Virus record (IMG/VR): IMGVR_UViG_3300049491_000850 | Span: 31,516-95,515 of that record | Source of the DNA: a virus | DNA length: 64,000 nt | Direction: 5' to 3' (one strand) | In this document: positions 3,981-54,544 of the stretch, piece after piece | Layout of the letters: each line of letters begins with the position of its first letter | Position numbering within the stretch: the first letter of the stretch is position 1 | Made by a program: the position numbers and the translations under genes | The notes under the pieces: generated by a model | The model's input: only the letters and a program-made list of their open reading frames with translations | What the model was told of the DNA's origin: nothing | Database searches by the model: none

Positions 3981-5134
3981 TAGGTGCATCTATTACCTAA
4001 ACCACTCAAAGGAGTGTTCGGTTTAGTATTAAGTTTAGAGTTAGGGCCGAACTTGATTGCGCTGAACACACTGTTGGTATTTGCATGATCAGGATCAGGT
4101 GTCAATGGCAACGTAATTGGAGTGAATACGTAATGTCTTTTATTAACAAACGGATAATCAACTCCCGAATTAGTTATTGGATCGATATAACCGTTAGGTA
4201 GAATATCTCTCCACACATAATTACCATTTCCGTCTGGTATTAACGTTGCATATGAAGGAATAGTAAAATCGTTTTCAGTTCCACCTGAAATATTCGCAGT
4301 GATTACTTCATCACCGAAATCTCTAAGTTTGATTGGAATGAACGGATTATACTTGAACTGTAACACACCAACATCGTAAGGAAATGTTATATAGTTTGTC
4401 ATTCTTTTTTCAACCGTTTGACTGAAAGATAAGAGTTGATAATTAACAACGTCACCCATCAATACGTCACCAACATTGTAGCCAGTACTCATATTATAGA
4501 CAACATCTTCGTATGTTTCAGTTATCCAATTATAATATTTATAAGTTTCGGGCGTACCGTTTCCGTTCGTTCTTTTCTTATAGACAAAATGTAAATAAAG
4601 TTCTGTAAACGGAAATCCAAAAGAATCTCTATACCCTTCAAGACTAAAGTCAATGTTGAACCCATAATTATAATTAAAATTGAAGAAGATATTTCTCCCG
4701 AAGCCAGCCTTGAATACTTCCCCGTTTCCCAACTTAGTTGCAACAACGTAATTTCTTATATAAGAGTCTCCACTTATATGTGTATGCCCGGTTGACGGGT
4801 AACATAGGTACATGTCAAATGAATATGGTAGGTTTTTCGTATTACCACTTAATTCATCCCCAAGTCTTGGTGGAGTGAAGAAATCGGTTAACACTTTGTA
4901 TTGACGTTTTAGTCCATTAATAATAGAGATAAAATCCGCTCTGCCGTAAACACGATATGTTTCGCTCTCTTGTCTCTCTGCATCAAATAACGCTGCCACA
5001 TCAATAACTGAGGATTCATTATAGGAAAGGATTTCCATTGAAGAGTTTGTGAGTTCAATATTAATGTTCTGGTCAACATTAATAGCATCCACATTCTTCT
5101 TCGAACCCAACTGTATGATCAAATTTTCATCCAT
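3980..5134 (-). CDS. putative virion structural (baseplate-associated) protein
   Basis: FDAERQES..YRVYG and WRDILPNGYID....GVDYPFVNKRHY motifs; late motif at 5139-5147. Confidence 0.55.
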   Translation of the reverse strand: MDENLIIQLGSKKNVDAINVDQNINIELTNSSMEILSYNESSVIDVAALFDAERQESETYRVYGRADFISIINGLKRQYKVLTDFFTPPRLGDELSGNTKNLPYSFDMYLCYPSTGHTHISGDSYIRNYVVATKLGNGEVFKAGFGRNIFFNFNYNYGFNIDFSLEGYRDSFGFPFTELYLHFVYKKRTNGNGTPETYKYYNWITETYEDVVYNMSTGYNVGDVLMGDVVNYQLLSFSQTVEKRMTNYITFPYDVGVLQFKYNPFIPIKLRDFGDEVITANISGGTENDFTIPSYATLIPDGNGNYVWRDILPNGYIDPITNSGVDYPFVNKRHYVFTPITLPLTPDPDHANTNSVFSAIKFGPNSKLNTKPNTPLSGLGNRCT

Positions 5135-8133: not shown

Positions 8134-10872
8134 ATGGCAAGTAATTTTGTATTCGTGTCTCCGGGAGTAAAATTCAAAGAAAGAGACCTTTCATTTGTTT
8201 CAAAAAACGTTGGTTTGACCACCCTTGGATTGGTTGGTGAAACTCCAAAGGGGCCTGCATTTCAGCCAATTACAATATCAAGCAAAGGCGATTTTTCGAC
8301 TAGATTCGGAAGTCAATCAGTAGAAAAATTCCCTAACGATGGAGGTCTTAAATTTCAACTTCCTTATGTTGCAAACTCATATTTAGACGAATCAGATCAA
8401 CTTGTAGTTACAAGAGTTCTTGGTCGTTCAGGTTATCAGGCAGGTACTGCTTGGGGTTTGAGAGTTAGTGCTGGTGTTGATATTTCAACTACTGGTGTAA
8501 CTTCAACAGGTTCAACCACAGAAAATTTCTCTGGTGGTGTATACTTAGGTACTACGATTACTAACGTAGGACAAACTGGCGTAATCTTCACAGGTTTCAC
8601 AAAAATAAGTTCAACTACTTTCTCAACTGTTCTTAGAGAATTCACTGTACAAACTTTGGTTGCCGGAAGCGGTAGCACAAGTGTACAATTGAGTACTATT
8701 AGTGGTTCATCACTTTCAGAATTTGAAGGTATGGTGGTAGCTATCGTAAGATCAAGAGGTAGTGTTGAAGATATTGTTGATGGTTCTCCTATCACTACTT
8801 TCCAAGCAACACAACTCCAAATGACTGCTAACGCAACAACAATTGGTGCTGGTGATATGTTCGGTAAGTTTACATTAGCAGCAGGTACTGGCACAACAGC
8901 AAGCACTGAAAGCTATGTAGTATCATTGAATCCTGATGCAAGAGAATTCATAGTAAACGTACTTGGTGACAAGCCTAAAGGCAAAAACACTAAGATTTAT
9001 GTTGAATCTGTATATCCTGACTTAATTAAGAAATTAGATGCTGATGGTGTTGTGTACGGTATTAGTACATCAATCATCAATGCAACCACAAATACATTCA
9101 CTGATTACAGAGAAGATTTCAAAACACCTGAAACTCCTTATATAGTGTCAGAATTAAGAGGTAACATAATCGAAAGATTATTCAAGTTTGTCTCTATCTC
9201 TGATGGTAATGCAGCGAACCAAGAAATTAAAATTTCATTGGCGAACATCGATCCTATCACAAAACAATTTGATATTATCGTTCGTGATTTCTATGATACT
9301 GACGATGCACTCGTAGTTCTTGAATCATTCAGAAACTGTTCAATGCAGAAAGGCTTGAACAACTACGTTGGTAACAGAGTTGGTACTATCGATGGTGAGT
9401 ACAGTATTCAAAGTAACTTTATCGTTCTTGATATTGATCCTAACGCTCCGGGCGATTCTTATCCTGCTGGATTCGAAGGTTATATCGTATTCGATTGGTC
9501 TTCATCTTCAACTGGTTCTGGAACACAAGGTATTTCACCTGAGATCGTTTACAAAAACGAATACGCAGCAACAGATAGAGTAAACAGAGTATACTTAGGT
9601 GTATCTGAAAGAGCATTTGACGGAGACAACTTGATCGGTACTGGTATCGACCAAAACTTCTTTAACTATAACGGACTTGACATCAGTTCTACTGATGACG
9701 CTCCAAGCGGTTATGTGAAAACTAAAGGTTTCCACATGGACGCAGAAGCAACTGGCGCAACCTATATGGATGGTTTAGCTGTAATCGGATCATTCGTGGT
9801 CGGTGCAGGAACATTCCAAGGTGCAGCAGATATAACTAACCCTAACAACCCTTACTTTGCTAAGAATGCAAGAAAGTTCACATTCGTTCCTTACGGTGGA
9901 TTTGATGGTTGGAATGAACACAGAGACAGAAGAACTACTACTGACCTTTACAAAAAGGGTGGTGTATATGATGGTGTACCTGTTGGTGCAACACCAAACA
10001 ACGACTTCCAAGCATGGGAAATTGCAATTGCAACTTTCAGAAATAGCGAAGACGTAACAATCAATTTGTTTGCTACTCCGGGTCTTAACTGGTCAGATAA
10101 CATCGGTATTATCAACGATACTATCGAAATGATCGAACAGGTAAGAGGTGACTCATTGTATGTAATCGATGCACCTGATCTTCCAGATGCTCCGGGCTTG
10201 GCTCAGGACATCGTTGATCTTCTTGACGATACTGATATTGACTCTAACTATAGTGCAACATTCTATCCTTGGGTTCAAATCAAAGACTCTATCAACAATC
10301 AGAATGTTTACATTCCACCTACAGGTGAAGTTGTAAGAGCAATTGCTTTCACAGATAACGTGAAGTTCCCTTGGTTCGCACCTGCTGGTTTGCAGAGAGG
10401 TGTTACTGATGCAATCAGAACAAGAAGAAAATTATCAAGTGATGAAAGAGACACATTGTATGATGGTAGAATTAACCCTATGGCGACATTCCCTGATACT
10501 GGTGTATCTATCTTCGGACAGAAAACTTTGCAAGTTGCAGAAACATCATTGAACAGAATCAACGTAAGAAGATTATTGCTTCAATTGAGAGTATTGATTT
10601 CTAACGTTGCAGTTAGATTACTTTTCGAACAAAACGATCAAACAACAATCGATGAATTCTTAGCTAAAGTTAATCCAATCTTGGAAACTGTTAAGAGAGA
10701 AAGAGGTCTTGAAGACTTTAAGGTTGTAATGGATCAATCAAATAACACTCCTGAAACAAGAGACAGAAATGAACTTTATGGTGAAATCTTCATCAAGCCT
10801 ACTAAGGCAGTTGAATTTATCGGTATTACCTTCACCATCACTCCTTCTGGTGCTTCTTTCGATAGTATTTAA
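8134..10872 (+). CDS. contractile tail sheath protein (gp18-like)
   Basis: N-terminal FVSPGV..ERDLS, G.T.KGPAF.P; C-terminal PWFAPAG..RG, RINP, FGQKT, LNRINVRRL, IFIKPTKAVEFI. Confidence 0.95.
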   Translation: MASNFVFVSPGVKFKERDLSFVSKNVGLTTLGLVGETPKGPAFQPITISSKGDFSTRFGSQSVEKFPNDGGLKFQLPYVANSYLDESDQLVVTRVLGRSGYQAGTAWGLRVSAGVDISTTGVTSTGSTTENFSGGVYLGTTITNVGQTGVIFTGFTKISSTTFSTVLREFTVQTLVAGSGSTSVQLSTISGSSLSEFEGMVVAIVRSRGSVEDIVDGSPITTFQATQLQMTANATTIGAGDMFGKFTLAAGTGTTASTESYVVSLNPDAREFIVNVLGDKPKGKNTKIYVESVYPDLIKKLDADGVVYGISTSIINATTNTFTDYREDFKTPETPYIVSELRGNIIERLFKFVSISDGNAANQEIKISLANIDPITKQFDIIVRDFYDTDDALVVLESFRNCSMQKGLNNYVGNRVGTIDGEYSIQSNFIVLDIDPNAPGDSYPAGFEGYIVFDWSSSSTGSGTQGISPEIVYKNEYAATDRVNRVYLGVSERAFDGDNLIGTGIDQNFFNYNGLDISSTDDAPSGYVKTKGFHMDAEATGATYMDGLAVIGSFVVGAGTFQGAADITNPNNPYFAKNARKFTFVPYGGFDGWNEHRDRRTTTDLYKKGGVYDGVPVGATPNNDFQAWEIAIATFRNSEDVTINLFATPGLNWSDNIGIINDTIEMIEQVRGDSLYVIDAPDLPDAPGLAQDIVDLLDDTDIDSNYSATFYPWVQIKDSINNQNVYIPPTGEVVRAIAFTDNVKFPWFAPAGLQRGVTDAIRTRRKLSSDERDTLYDGRINPMATFPDTGVSIFGQKTLQVAETSLNRINVRRLLLQLRVLISNVAVRLLFEQNDQTTIDEFLAKVNPILETVKRERGLEDFKVVMDQSNNTPETRDRNELYGEIFIKPTKAVEFIGITFTITPSGASFDSI

Positions 10873-49160: not shown

Positions 49161-50870
49161 ATGAAACTCACTTGGTTAAAAGAGGATCAAAGAGAATTTT
49201 TAGAAAGAGGCTATTTGGAAAACGGTGAAACACCGGAGGACAGATATAAAGAACTCTGCAATACAATTGAAACGTATTGTCTTAAATTATCACAAACAGT
49301 TGAATCGATTGAATACTGTAAAGGTATTGGAAAACGTTTTGAAGAATACATTGCAAAAGGATGGTGTTCATTTGCAACTCCTGTATTAATTAATTTTGGT
49401 AAGAAAGAAAATCTTGCGATCTCATGTAATAAGAGTATTCTTAGTGATTCGCTTGATGATATTTACAAAGGTATCCATGAATTAGGTATGTTGGCAAAGT
49501 ATGGTGCGGGAACGTCACAGAACTTTTCTAATTTAAGACCAATGGGTTCTGATATATCAACTGGTGGTCAATCGAACACGATTCTTGATTGGGTTGAACT
49601 GTATGCCGATATGATGTCTAAAACATCACAGAATAGAGCAAGACGTGGTTTCTTAACTGCATATCTATCTGTTGATCATCCTGAGATCATGGATTTCTTG
49701 GACATTGGTACGCATAGAGTGCCAGCAGATAAGCAACGTTTCTTCCAAACCATTACAACGGCAGTTACACTTCCTGTTGGTTGGAGAAAATCTTTGAAAG
49801 AAGGTGATAAAGAGAAGCGTACTATTTGGGGCAAGATTTTGAAGACAAGAAAAGAAGTAGGATTTCCTTACATTATTGATCTTGAAAATTCAAACGAAGC
49901 AAGACCTCAAGTCTACAAAGACAAAGGCATGGAAATTAAAACATCGAACATCTGTACCGAGATCATCGAGTACTGTGACGATAAAAAAACATTTGCATGT
50001 TGCCTTTCATCTTTGGTTGCATACTATTTCGATGAATGGGAGAATCATCCTAACTTCATTTTCGATATGAACTTGTTGTTGGATTGTGTTATCGAAGAAT
50101 ACATCGAGAAAGGAAAGAAAATGGCTGGTATGGCAAAAGCAGTTAAGTTTGCAGAAGAACATAGAGCCATTGGGTTAGGTGTACTTGCATTCCACTCTTA
50201 TTTACAGAAGAAAGGTATTGTCTTCGGTGAACTTGCATCGTTCTCTGTTAATCAGAGAATGTTTGGAAAGCTAAGAAGCGAATCTGATCGTGCATCTAAG
50301 TGGATGGCAGAGCATTTTGGTGAACCAGAAATTTTGAAAGGATACGGTTTGAGAAATACTACTCGTATTGCGCAAGCACCAACAAAATCTACGTCATATA
50401 TAATGGGTGGTATTGCGTTGAACTTCTCAGAAGGAGTTGAACCACATAAATCAAACTACACTTCAAAGAAATTGGCGAAAATTCAATCAGAGGTGAAGAA
50501 CAAGGAACTTATCGATTTGTTGGAATCAAAAGGTAAGAATAAAAAAGATGTGTGGGAAACTATTCTCGTTCACAACGGATCGGTACAGCATCTTGATTTC
50601 TTAAATGAAAGAGAAAAGGCTATTTTTAGAACTTTCTCTGAAATTTCACAAGTTGACGTGATTAAACTTGCTGGTCAAAGACAAAAATTCATTGACCAAG
50701 GGCAATCGATCAATATCATGATCCACCCGGATACACCTGCAAATGAGATAAATAAGCTACATTTGCTGGCATTTGACGAAGGTCTGAAATCATTGTACTA
50801 TCAATATTCAATTAATGCTGCACAGGAATTTAACAAGGAATTGTTAACTTGCTCAAGTTGCGAAGCATAA
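49161..50870 (+). CDS. nrdA: ribonucleotide reductase alpha subunit (no ATP cone)
   Basis: ATP..NFG, ISC, SNICTEI (NxCxE), APT.S, IDQGQS.N, KSLYY, C-terminal CSSCE. Confidence 0.95.
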   Translation: MKLTWLKEDQREFLERGYLENGETPEDRYKELCNTIETYCLKLSQTVESIEYCKGIGKRFEEYIAKGWCSFATPVLINFGKKENLAISCNKSILSDSLDDIYKGIHELGMLAKYGAGTSQNFSNLRPMGSDISTGGQSNTILDWVELYADMMSKTSQNRARRGFLTAYLSVDHPEIMDFLDIGTHRVPADKQRFFQTITTAVTLPVGWRKSLKEGDKEKRTIWGKILKTRKEVGFPYIIDLENSNEARPQVYKDKGMEIKTSNICTEIIEYCDDKKTFACCLSSLVAYYFDEWENHPNFIFDMNLLLDCVIEEYIEKGKKMAGMAKAVKFAEEHRAIGLGVLAFHSYLQKKGIVFGELASFSVNQRMFGKLRSESDRASKWMAEHFGEPEILKGYGLRNTTRIAQAPTKSTSYIMGGIALNFSEGVEPHKSNYTSKKLAKIQSEVKNKELIDLLESKGKNKKDVWETILVHNGSVQHLDFLNEREKAIFRTFSEISQVDVIKLAGQRQKFIDQGQSINIMIHPDTPANEINKLHLLAFDEGLKSLYYQYSINAAQEFNKELLTCSSCEA

Positions 50871-50902
50871 ATGTTACTACTTATTTTCTTTATATTAATG
50901 AT

Positions 50903-50929
50903 ATGGCTCCATTGTTGGAGCCATTCTTT
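50903..50929 (+). terminator. hairpin / probable terminator after nrdA
   Basis: ATGGCTCC-attgtt-GGAGCCAT followed by TCTTT. Confidence 0.5.
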
Positions 50930-50980
50930 ATTCCCTTCTAGGGTAATAAAAAAAATATTTCGTAAATTTTTGGAGTTTTT

Positions 50981-51133
50981 TATAACCTTTTATAGAAAAT
51001 AGCGTATTTATCTTTACGTCCGAAAATAAATCGAAATATTTTTGAGTAGGACTTGACAAAGAGAAAACTATTTGTACCTTTGTCTTCCCGTCACAGAATA
51101 CCGAGACGGAAAACAGACGTTCTTTAAAATATT
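50981..51133 (+). promoter_or_regulatory. stacked promoters plus boxA-like antitermination element
   Basis: AAC(50984)-N16-CGT(51003); late motif GTATTTAT at 51004-51011; TTG(51053)-N19-TACCTTTG(51075-51082); CGTTCTTTAAAAT at 51118-51130. Confidence 0.6.
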
Positions 51134-51141
51134 AAAAAAAT

Positions 51142-51910
51142 ATGGGCTGCTTGAAGTCCATTAAAAGATAAAACCAGTAATGGTGATAAAGGGGGTGTGG
51201 TATAAACGCCATGTTCTCGATCTCCTTCCGCAAGGAAGTGGATACAATCAAGCAAGCATTGCAGTTGGATTTTTTATAGTGAGGGGCTTACGTCTGTAGC
51301 TATGGAGGGTTCGAGTTCCATCAACGGGGTGGAAATAAGTATGGAAACATATGATTGTAAAATGCAGGTTATTTGTGCACCTCCGGGTGTGCGAATCATG
51401 TCGGTCTGAAATCTCGCAAGGACGTAAGGCTGAGACCAGTTATTTCACTGACTTTCTCATAAAACGAATGGTTGGGGTGATGATGGTGACCGCAAGTCAC
51501 AGAGAGTTGTTTGGTATTGGCTATCCAAAAGATAGTTAGCCGAGTCTCAGCCACAACTTTCAGAAGTCCGAAAATATACTTCAAACGTATATCCCTTTTA
51601 AGGATACAACAACTTGTAAAAAAGAGCAAGTGCTGAGACGATTAGACAGAAAGTCGCATACTACCGTTGCAATATACGGTAATGGTCACCTCTCAAGGGT
51701 GGTCAGTTGATAGGACTTGTTGCGGTGGGGAGGCATCCTCGTTGTAGCGATGGACTAACTGAAAATGTCTGGTCGAAACGAATGGTTTCCGAACCGTAAG
51801 GGGAAGGAACTTGCGATTGTAGTGTACTTGCCGAAAGGTGAGTGGATAAGAAGAGAACCGAAAGGATAATGCTTCGAAAGTGCTACTGGAATGCTGTAAT
51901 CTCAGGCGTT
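51142..51910 (+). ncRNA. large ornate non-coding RNA, GOLLD-like (GOLLD/ROOL class)
   Basis: ~770 nt with no credible ORF; many GNRA-capped hairpins; long-range helices GGCTGAGAC(51428)/GTCTCAGCC(51544) and CTGAG(51633)/CTCAG(51901); tRNA just downstream. Family assignment rests on size and context. Confidence 0.6.
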
Positions 51911-51980
51911 TATCTTTCACACCATGTTGAGGAATCGATGGGGTGTTGAGAGAGAACTTCGATGATGAATCGAAGAATAT

Positions 51981-52052
51981 GGGGATGTAGTTTAACTTTT
52001 AAAACACACGACTTCGGGTTGTGTGATGGGGGTGAAAATCCCTCCAACCCCA
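51981..52052 (+). tRNA. non-canonical tRNA-Arg(TCG) or tRNA-like RNA
   Basis: Cloverleaf: acceptor GGGGATG/CAACCCC (one A-A mismatch), D stem GTTT/AAAC, anticodon stem CACGA/TTGTG with loop CTTCGGG, T stem GGGGG/CCCTC with loop TGAAAAT; no encoded CCA. Confidence 0.7.
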
Positions 52053-52055
52053 CTT

Positions 52056-52332
52056 AACTGGCTATTTATCGGGTTACTTCAAACTTTCTTTATACGAAAA
52101 CTTAACCACCTGATTATGCTTTCCAGTTTTTATTTTAAGATAGACGATCTTAAAAAACAACATTAAAGATATTGTGGCTACAGTGTAAGTTACTTCTCGC
52201 TCTTCGGAGCAACAAAATGGTAATTTGAACAAACACTAACACTAATTTCCACAACCTCATTTCTGGCTATTGATTCAGTTACTTCTACAATTTACAATTT
52301 AAATGTTCAACCACTGACTCGCGTTTCCAGAA
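52056..52332 (+). ncRNA. array of three structured RNA repeats (units 52056-52128, 52172-52254, 52261-52332)
   Basis: Each unit: closing stem-TGG CTA..inner stem-GT TACTTC..variable loop..CAC-inner stem..TTT CCA-closing stem; stems differ in sequence but keep pairing. Confidence 0.7.
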
Positions 52333-52381
52333 TTTTTTTATTAAAACCATTCTGATTTTAAAACCTGTAACTTTTAAAACT

Positions 52382-54544
52382 ATGAAAACAAAAACCCTAT
52401 CTCCAATCACTGCGGCAGAGACTGTCTTTACGAAGGCACAGATCGCATTCCAAAGAGGCTTCCTTTTGGGAACACCAAACAAGCCCATCGGTAAATTGCT
52501 GACCAAGCAAGAGAAATTTAGCATCCAAGCAGAATTAATGCAGTTCGGATACATTCTATCCGAAGAAGCACTTGTCGTTGTAACCATTGACTGGTTCAAA
52601 GATGTAATTCCTTTCTTGAGAAAGAATTTAGGTGTAGGCGACTACACACCATTCTATAAGAACTTCCCACAACAAGTGATGGAACTTAGCCATGCTGAGT
52701 TGTATTGGAATGCAATCATCCATTACTGGTCAAGTGGTACTTGGGAACCAACTTATCTGTTGAAAGAAAGAGGCTTTGCCTTTGAAAACACTAAGTTCAC
52801 AACTATCAAGTTGGGAACCGAAGAGGATTTCCAAAAAATCTTTACAAATCTTGTATCGATCAATCAGTCTATCACTGAAAACGATAAGTCTATAATCGAA
52901 TGGTTCATCCAGAACTATGCGCAAGGTATTGTCATGCCTAAAGTTGTTCCTTTCAAGGAAACACTTTGTATGCTTGCCGGACACGGCTTACCAGTTCCTG
53001 TACAAACAGCAACTGACGTATTGAGAATAGCAACCTATTTCTCAGGTGGTGATATTTCATTGCCAGCAGTACCGAAAGTTACTATTGACGAAGTTAAGGA
53101 AAATAGAAAGGCAACTTTCTTCCGTAACTTGAGAGATTCACAAATCGAAGCAAGAGATAAGTTTAAGTTCAAGAACTTGCCTAGAGCAAGAAGAAAGTAT
53201 TTGCTTTCATTGCTTGAATCGATCAATATTGATCTCGGTGAAATGAAGTTGAAACTCGAAAGATGGTTACGTCTTGGAGAAGTACTTCACGTAGGTGAAT
53301 ATAAGACTCGTTTTCCTAAAGCGTATCAAGCATTCAACGTGCTTAGAAATGACGTGCAATCAGTACAGACTTTCGAGTCTAAAATTGATGCTGCATTTCA
53401 AAAGGTATTTGAAACTAACGATGATGAATCATTAGATTTCGCCTTGATGCTTCTTTCTAAGAGACCGGGTATTTTCGCGAGAAAATTAGACTGGTTATTG
53501 AGAAATTTCGAGAATTCTGCCGTGCTAGAAACCTTCAAGAAAATCTCTATGAAGGTGAGTAAGAAAGTATTGTGGGAACTTTACAATCACTTCTTAAACC
53601 GTGATACAACCAACGCAAGATCGGTTATGATCAAGGGTAAGAAGTCAATAAAGAGAACTCTTCCAGAGTTACCTCCAATGAATAAGGTTTTGATCAATAA
53701 GATTCAAAACGTGATCTTATCGTGCATCGCTGAACACTTTAGCCAACTTGAAAAACTTGGTGATGTGTGGATTGATGAACAGTTGAAGAACATTCCTCTT
53801 CCTTCTGGAATGAGAAGTGTGAACACGGCAGTGAAGACTTACGTGAGAGGAACTAGAATTCCGTTCAACGCAGATGCTAAGGTTGTGAGACCTTATATCC
53901 ACTGGTTCGATCAACATGGAGATGAAGATTTGGATTTGAGTGTAGGATTCTACAATGCAAATTTGAAGGGTGTTGAACACATCTCATATACTAATCTTAG
54001 AAGTCAAAGATTGAACTCGGTTCACTCTGGTGATGTAAGACGTAGAGCAGGTGCGTGTGCTGAATACGTTGATATTGACATCGCTGCTTGTGCAAAGAAC
54101 GGTGTTAGATATGCAATGGTTCAAGTGCATAACTTCCAAAATAGACCAATGCATACAATGAAAGATTGTGTGTTCGGTTTGATGGAAAGAGAATTCCCGG
54201 AAGCAAACAGTATCTTCGTACCGAAGACAATCACTAATGCAGTTAAGGTAGCGAACGAAAGTTCAACCGTCTGCATCGTGCTCTTGGATTTAGTTGAGAG
54301 AAACTATATTTGGGTTGATTGTGAACTTGAATCGAGAGAGTTGGCTAACCTTGAAAGCACTTCAAATATGACCGCTCAATTGATCAAGGGATTGATTAAC
54401 AACTCACATTTGTCAGTGTATGATTTATTGTATCTTCATGCCGAAAGCAGAGGAACAATAGTTAGAAATAAGGAATTTGCTCAGACCGTGTTCGAGTATG
54501 ATGACTTCGTAACAAGCTACGAAAAGGCTGCAACCTTTATGTAA
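52382..54544 (+). CDS. ROT/TROVE-like helical-repeat protein with C-terminal TerD domain (Prok-RING_4-type architecture, RING finger absent)
   Basis: FY.NFP, TATDVLR.A...SGGD.SL, RW.RLGE.LH.GEY, RPG.FAR.LD.LLR, RGTR; TerD signatures DLDLS, HSGD, EYVDID. Confidence 0.75.
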   Translation: MKTKTLSPITAAETVFTKAQIAFQRGFLLGTPNKPIGKLLTKQEKFSIQAELMQFGYILSEEALVVVTIDWFKDVIPFLRKNLGVGDYTPFYKNFPQQVMELSHAELYWNAIIHYWSSGTWEPTYLLKERGFAFENTKFTTIKLGTEEDFQKIFTNLVSINQSITENDKSIIEWFIQNYAQGIVMPKVVPFKETLCMLAGHGLPVPVQTATDVLRIATYFSGGDISLPAVPKVTIDEVKENRKATFFRNLRDSQIEARDKFKFKNLPRARRKYLLSLLESINIDLGEMKLKLERWLRLGEVLHVGEYKTRFPKAYQAFNVLRNDVQSVQTFESKIDAAFQKVFETNDDESLDFALMLLSKRPGIFARKLDWLLRNFENSAVLETFKKISMKVSKKVLWELYNHFLNRDTTNARSVMIKGKKSIKRTLPELPPMNKVLINKIQNVILSCIAEHFSQLEKLGDVWIDEQLKNIPLPSGMRSVNTAVKTYVRGTRIPFNADAKVVRPYIHWFDQHGDEDLDLSVGFYNANLKGVEHISYTNLRSQRLNSVHSGDVRRRAGACAEYVDIDIAACAKNGVRYAMVQVHNFQNRPMHTMKDCVFGLMEREFPEANSIFVPKTITNAVKVANESSTVCIVLLDLVERNYIWVDCELESRELANLESTSNMTAQLIKGLINNSHLSVYDLLYLHAESRGTIVRNKEFAQTVFEYDDFVTSYEKAATFM

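Follow-up and report, generated by a model that had tools for sequence, protein, structure and literature searches.

GOLLD RNA, whose discovery is reportedly due to Weinberg et al. in 2009, is among the few natural RNAs that build a large cage unaided. ROOL, the other cage-forming giant RNA associated with phages, resembles the RNA described here in its large size, in its phage and tRNA-island setting and, probably, in self-assembly, and differs from it in that fold and sequence are unrelated. GOLLD from env-38 is a 14-mer, as seen by cryo-EM (Kretsch et al. 2025, PMC12286853), with a linker that is disordered and inside the cage (PMC12286853), and the 3′ domain of S. agalactiae GOLLD is mainly a decamer (PMC12286853, PMC12990946).

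The subject here is a 64,000-nt stretch of viral DNA (the window), taken from an IMG/VR virus record of 95.5 kb whose completeness is ~30% by CheckV and which carries one GOLLD only. The reading that best explains the locus overall, and that we hold with considerable confidence, is of a GOLLD RNA gene of a large tailed phage, provided with a Nus-type leader and specifying an RNA that would form a shell. Current understanding of GOLLD is left unchanged by it. What the locus adds is a divergent GOLLD subfamily, from phages probably infecting Flavobacteria, and, if its hairpins are mapped by position onto a solved structure, a natural variant without one of the hairpins that join half-shells.

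Family assignment and setting

When the entire window was compared with all 4,227 Rfam families (cmscan), the above-cut-off matches were GOLLD and one tRNA. The GOLLD match (RF02032; 51502-51908, + strand) takes in model positions 1-416 with 156.2 bits (E 1.8e-43), only 6 bits over the curated gathering cut-off of 150 bits, and places the RNA in the family. The original prediction had left a choice between a GOLLD member and a new relative; it is the former that was found, the match being to the full model, and the latter falls away. Neither ROOL nor OLE, the other two models that it had named for comparison, gives a match at E up to 1 within 50800-52400, where Rfam models yield nothing else of note at that threshold.

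The Rfam model represents the conserved 3′ half of GOLLD only, so the 5′ half required separate evidence. A search of about 250 loci with a sequence profile (nhmmer) built from the 5′ half recovers only the five close relatives. Direct alignment (A8) reveals an ordered series of 5′ motifs common to the window and six canonical GOLLD loci, beginning with a first hairpin GGCnG...GUC, then AAAUAAAC and a GNRA hairpin, and continuing through GAUAAAG, ACAAGC, GAGGG..AAC..CUGUAG and AAUAAG. Because this is the canonical 5′ element series, both halves are assigned to GOLLD, and 51142-51911 (+ strand) is a full-length RNA of the known family. Likenesses to described members comprise the full-length 3′-domain match, a long-range covarying helix and conserved core blocks (both dealt with below), a variable linker past the first 3′-domain hairpin, the 5′ junction motifs, a length of ~0.8 kb, phage origin and the nearness of tRNAs; the 5′ domain is ~60 nt shorter than the 420 nt of its env-38 counterpart. 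The family itself is common in IMG/VR, its 3′ core motif occurring in >120 viral contigs.

Relatives of the whole RNA, at ~72% identity, are present in five viral contigs (L244, L027, L255, L243 and L253, the last being of 362 kb). A sixth relative, L258, is truncated, has a 5′ domain identical to that of L244, and was the one new copy to come from a metagenome scan with the 5′ motif. Similarity sets in sharply at 51142, the first base of the first stem, with a conserved leader before it from 51119, and ends at 51913, the predicted ends (51142-51910) being accurate to a few bases.

The RNA lies in a gap, 50871-52381, between the gene for the ribonucleotide reductase large subunit (49161-50870, Pfam) and a gene for a 720-aa protein (52382-54544). 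No ORF in the gap exceeds 77 aa on either strand; 51142-51910 had been predicted to be gene-free, and is so by the same measure. The predicted richness in G/C is likewise borne out, the G+C content being 0.43-0.45, compared with 0.30-0.32 for the adjoining spacer and 0.32-0.40 for coding sequence. The reductase operon ends in a hairpin followed by a T-run, of terminator-like form, at 50903-50924. Among the other genes are those for a tail sheath, a DnaB-like helicase, a 5′-3′ exonuclease and both reductase subunits; the association with a phage and proximity to a tRNA that had been foreseen are matched by the viral nature of the record and by a tRNA-Arg gene 3′ of the RNA (Table 1).

With regard to the host, an 8.8-kb contig (L260) assigned to a Flavobacterium MAG encodes a reductase large subunit with 80% identity to that of the window, and a contig from the bin of a Lacinutrix MAG encodes one with 66% identity. 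The first of these contigs probably represents phage DNA that was sorted into the bin of its host, and so a hint of the host rather than a host gene; as a clue it may be weakened by the contig itself being phage DNA. From these matches to MAG-binned contigs together with the promoter words considered below, the host is probably a member of the Flavobacteriales. A host that is probably from the Bacteroidota would set this GOLLD apart from those of Lactobacillales or Actinobacteria.

Table 1. Features of the GOLLD locus, in window coordinates
Feature	Position	Strand	Basis and remarks
Putative Bacteroidota-type promoter, TTG-N19-TAnnTTTG (TTGACA...TACCTTTG)	51053-51082	+	Kept in 7/7 related loci
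Leader hairpin CCGTC...GACGG, boxB-like position	51088-51109	+	Between promoter and BoxA; read from sequence
BoxA-like word GTTCTTTAAAA	51119-51129	+	Exact match to GYTCTTTAANA
GOLLD 5′ domain, ~360 nt, with a minimum of 12 helices and several GCAA/GNRA loops	51142-51501	+	~72% identity to five contigs; RNAalifold
Extra 30-nt hairpin GTGCACC-TCCG-GGTGTGC, window lineage only	51373-51402	+	In 0 relatives (alignment A3)
GOLLD 3′ domain (conserved half)	51502-51911	+	Rfam RF02032, model 1-416; covarying pairs
Pseudoknot helix, 5′ strand GUCUCAGC	51544-51551	+	Partner 51632-51639; invariant
Variable linker, two small hairpins, no embedded tRNA	51563-51631	+	Aligned to unpaired A/U-rich linker of Rfam model
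Pseudoknot helix, 3′ strand GCUGAGAC	51632-51639	+	Partner 51544-51551
Sole apical hairpin left on P19-P21 arm, GGAGG-CAU-CCUC	51727-51741	+	Second, 19-nt hairpin missing here
tRNA-Arg (anticodon TCG)	51981-52053	+	ARAGORN; Rfam tRNA 52 bits (51981-52052)
Three tandem small RNA units, ~75-90 nt each	52056-52332		Conserved in relatives

Leader, transcription and neighbouring tRNAs

The promoter-like words TTG-N19-TAnnTTTG, which we take to be the Bacteroidota form, stand 37 nt upstream of a BoxA-like word and are constant in 7 related loci, the two free bases varying from CC to AG (alignment A5); TAnnTTTG words also precede Flavobacterium rRNA leaders. The hairpin between promoter and BoxA is a variable element, as the same site has a different hairpin in L253, none in L244 and a tRNA in L027. 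The tRNA so placed in L027 (3335-3408) scores 40.9 bits with Rfam, and the same contig has, 3 nt past the 3′ end of its GOLLD (about 4180-4260), a degenerate sequence that resembles a tRNA and is recognised by neither tool. Upstream of the promoter, at 50981-51030, six related loci share another conserved block of non-coding sequence, TTTTTTATAACCTTTTATAG...CGTATTTATC.TTAC (A5).

The BoxA-like word agrees in full with the published consensus GYTCTTTAANA (PMC5725501), and GTTCTTT is invariant in 7/7 relatives. Well beyond these, 69 of 102 other viral GOLLD loci have G[CT]TCTTT[AG]A in the sense orientation (55 distinct sequences in the count). The words cluster at a distance of 740-860 nt ahead of the 3′ motif, where the RNA has its 5′ edge, and there reach a density of 0.67/kb in the other GOLLD loci, as against 0.008/kb and a single occurrence on the opposite strand and a background rate of 0.085/kb. 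In Flavobacterium, rRNA leaders and spacers have GTTCATTGACA, in one case GTTCTTTAACA, downstream of TAnnTTTG promoters; the former, slightly unlike the BoxA of the window, is the form in most of the operons for rRNA that were looked at in the probable host genus, where the strict BoxA word is present in 1 of 7 rRNA loci and the relaxed GTTCATTGA is usual. In a betaproteobacterial genome GCTCTTTAAAA and GCTCTTTAACA come before and after the 16S gene.

The parallel is with the leader of an rRNA operon, such as E. coli rrn, in which, as would be the case here, promoter, optional hairpin and BoxA precede a long, untranslated and highly structured RNA sharing its transcript with tRNA, and to whose BoxA consensus the window conforms without exception (PMC5725501). 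The present locus differs in carrying a phage RNA where the operon carries rRNA, and neither a boxC nor a spacer BoxA was identified. The locus lends further independent support to an rRNA-style BoxA leader on GOLLD genes, and offers a testable handle on their synthesis. A literature search whose scope did not take in the 2009 discovery paper found no paper stating a link between GOLLD and BoxA, and the motif is absent from the supplements of PMC12286853.

By analogy, GOLLD is likely made as rRNA is, with Nus-factor antitermination. Host RNA polymerase would start at the Bacteroidota-type promoter, and BoxA in the leader would, as in rRNA operons, recruit NusB/NusE and other Nus factors, which would let the long untranslated transcript escape Rho termination and assist its folding. 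Transcription would continue into tRNA-Arg and the three small RNAs, with processing of the tRNA probably helping to define the 3′ end of GOLLD. A bolder version, which is worth stating even if we think it unlikely, has GOLLD operons as mimics of rRNA operons in a fuller sense, a family-wide BoxA loading the host Nus complex both to counter Rho and to chaperone folding into the cage, with the abundant BoxA-bearing RNA conceivably diverting NusB/NusE from the synthesis of host rRNA, and with an altered or open shell in the case of the copy lacking P21b (see below).

Fragments of the RNA are present in RNA libraries. Contigs of four metatranscriptome runs from four studies (soil, freshwater, sediment) match 51149-51912 only, of the 1.5 kb tested, these contigs being assembled ones that may include DNA and that carry neither strand nor end information. 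One of 271 nt has 0 mismatches, and another spans a window-specific insertion. They do not cover 50900-51148 and 51913-52400, an absence that proves nothing, and they would fit an abundant, stable RNA.

Continuity with the sequence downstream suggests a different reading, in which this is a GOLLD-derived cis element, a structured leader or processing scaffold for an operon of tRNA and small RNAs that protects the downstream RNAs or times their release, and not the source of a free particle. It draws on the finding of no terminator-like site on the + strand in 51913-52382, and so of none between GOLLD and the tRNA-Arg that starts 68 nt 3′ of it, on the way tRNAs abut GOLLD in relatives (upstream in L027, downstream in L244 and L253), and on an RNA contig of a relative that passes from the GOLLD 3′ end straight into tRNA-like sequence (loose end 51912). 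However, which tRNA adjoins GOLLD, and where it lies, changes from locus to locus while GOLLD is constant, and solved GOLLD RNAs self-assemble alone (PMC12286853); that the RNA-library contigs cover GOLLD, and not the tRNA or the small RNAs, also counts against it, if weakly. On balance a cis-acting element seems improbable.

With GOLLD as a particle-forming RNA, the preferred reading, the solved structures suggest that the 5′ and 3′ halves would fold as separate domains and that copies of the RNA would associate by kissing-loop and A-minor interactions to make a hollow, multimeric shell; by the same analogy the RNA of the window would be a self-assembling cage. As for its role in infection, the constant tRNA neighbourhood makes a connection with tRNA or with translation the foremost guess.

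Fold, divergence and copy-specific hairpins

Conservation of the fold by compensatory change is seen in both halves. RNAalifold gives 80 pairs in the 5′ half, of which 27 have double changes that keep pairing, and the corresponding figure for the 3′ half is 30/123. When partners are slid by 1-3 columns as a control, 1-7 double-change pairs result, and 0/500 shuffles match the observed double changes in either half. Homologues, and covarying pairs among them, the lack of which would have told against the original prediction, are both at hand. All four of its GNRA-type hairpins are where it had put them: in CTTCC-GCAA-GGAAG (helix 5) relatives show double changes at 4 pairs, ACTTGCC-GAAA-GGTGAGT and CC-GAAA-GG match conserved hairpins of the Rfam GOLLD consensus, and CC-GTAA-GG caps a hairpin, near 51791-51802, that is extended by 11-12 nt in comparison with relatives.

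The long-range helix of the Rfam model, 51640-48/51766-74, has 9/9 pairs in all six sequences, with differing letters. A further helix, 51544-51551/51632-51639, has 8/8 pairs in six sequences, including one G-C to C-G swap in L243. As it crosses the basal helix 51502-10/51553-61, it forms a pseudoknot, and from this single covarying event it appears to be one that closes off the variable linker, whose length differs among relatives.

Two other long-range helices had been proposed, and these are the exceptions in an interpretation that is otherwise supported. For the 9-bp helix 51428-36/51544-52, the complement is present in this sequence; the helix finds no support in relatives, where 5-8 of the 9 positions pair, the 5′ side drifting and the 3′ side being fixed. 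At least one 9-bp complement arises by chance in 51% of dinucleotide shuffles (mean 0.93), and the 51428-36 strand is also within a local covarying hairpin (helix 13). The closure of the 3′ domain by CTGAG/CTCAG (51633-38/51900-05) loses one pair, uncompensated, in L243 and in L253.

In the 3′ core, the blocks UAC..GAAA..GUGGAUAAGA..GAA..AUAAU and the GUAAUCUCAG loop have high posterior probability (cmscan) and are invariant in relatives. Differences from the family lie in the P19-P21 arm, which aligns poorly to the Rfam model and whose outer helix does not align, in the absence from this arm of a second apical hairpin, and in two insertions of this copy's own, at 51373-51402 and about 51791-51802. 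The hairpin formed by the first insertion recurs in RNA-library data of an independent sample, on a contig with 4 mismatches (X12 record 1, 51309-51459).

Possession of both apical hairpins on the P19-P21 arm is a peripheral, non-defining feature of the consensus, and the window copy has one of them. The other, of 19 nt, is carried by 5/5 relatives and is absent from the window copy (alignment A4, columns 254-272); in relatives it aligns to Rfam model positions 249-262. As the model still passes its cut-off, the missing hairpin makes this a variant with membership intact. Going by residue numbers in env-38 (L21a at 656-657; 3′ domain start 421; Kretsch et al. 2025, PMC12286853), the hairpin retained would by position be P21a and the one missing P21b, by that mapping one contact joining the env-38 half-shells, in which case the RNA of the window might assemble differently. 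A contig from the RNA library of run X12, with 1 mismatch in 128 bases (51756-51883), carries further upstream the P19-P21 arm of the relatives (window 51733-51756). Since so nearly identical a contig keeps the hairpin, its loss is recent, specific to the strain or an assembly error.

The loss of a P19-P21 hairpin and a score of 156.2 bits against a cut-off of 150 might be taken as marks of a decaying, non-functional copy. The five full relatives, however, likewise come out just over the cut-off with Rfam GOLLD (158-174 bits), which makes the narrow margin a trait of the subfamily, and the GOLLD of the window belongs to a divergent one that is just past the cut-off. Pairing, moreover, is retained in 94-97% of cells in the alignment of relatives, with many compensatory changes, the 3′ core sequence blocks are intact and matching RNA-library contigs exist, all of which leaves decay with very little probability. 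Hardly more credence is due to a separate new RNA family having only its 3′ module in common with GOLLD, as might be argued from the 5′-half sequence profile having 0 matches in about 115 other GOLLD loci and from blastn of 50900-52100 having none in 50,697 phage records, given that the Rfam model is matched end to end, that the 5′ junction motifs follow the canonical GOLLD order, and that BoxA leader and overall length are the same.

Downstream small RNAs and the 720-aa gene

The small RNA units that follow the tRNA have UGGCUA..GUUACUUC..UUUCCA in common, and their terminal stems differ from unit to unit. In 26 of 80 viral loci with homologues of the 720-aa gene (down to about 42% identity; L361-L393) the motif occurs directly before or after the homologue on the same strand, and it occurs in 0 of about 115 GOLLD loci. 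On these counts the small RNAs look as if they belong with the 720-aa gene, in a protein-plus-small-RNA module, and not with the GOLLD RNA.

The 720-aa protein has no Pfam domain, falls in PHROG 33734 and has >1,100 homologues, many of them on contigs of 300-550 kb. Its AlphaFold model (mean pLDDT 79.6) consists of a helical repeat region and a C-terminal TerD fold, the latter with Z 14.7. A TROVE/Ro60 reading of the protein meets with 0 sequence matches in Pfam and PDB and 0 Ro60 by Foldseek; with VIA-align, Ro60 of Thermus phage phiLo and Rsr of D. radiodurans match about 300 residues of the model, at Z of only 6.3-6.7.

The idea of the 720-aa gene as a general partner of GOLLD was rejected, as a homologue is near 0 of about 115 other GOLLDs, and as, of the 80 homologue loci, GOLLD is within 4 kb only in three known relatives and in one other (L366). 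The last, on a 310-kb viral contig, is the sole pairing of the two outside the close relatives; there a homologue with 44% identity to the 720-aa gene is followed, ~2.4 kb further downstream, by a GOLLD 3′ core (8483-8679).
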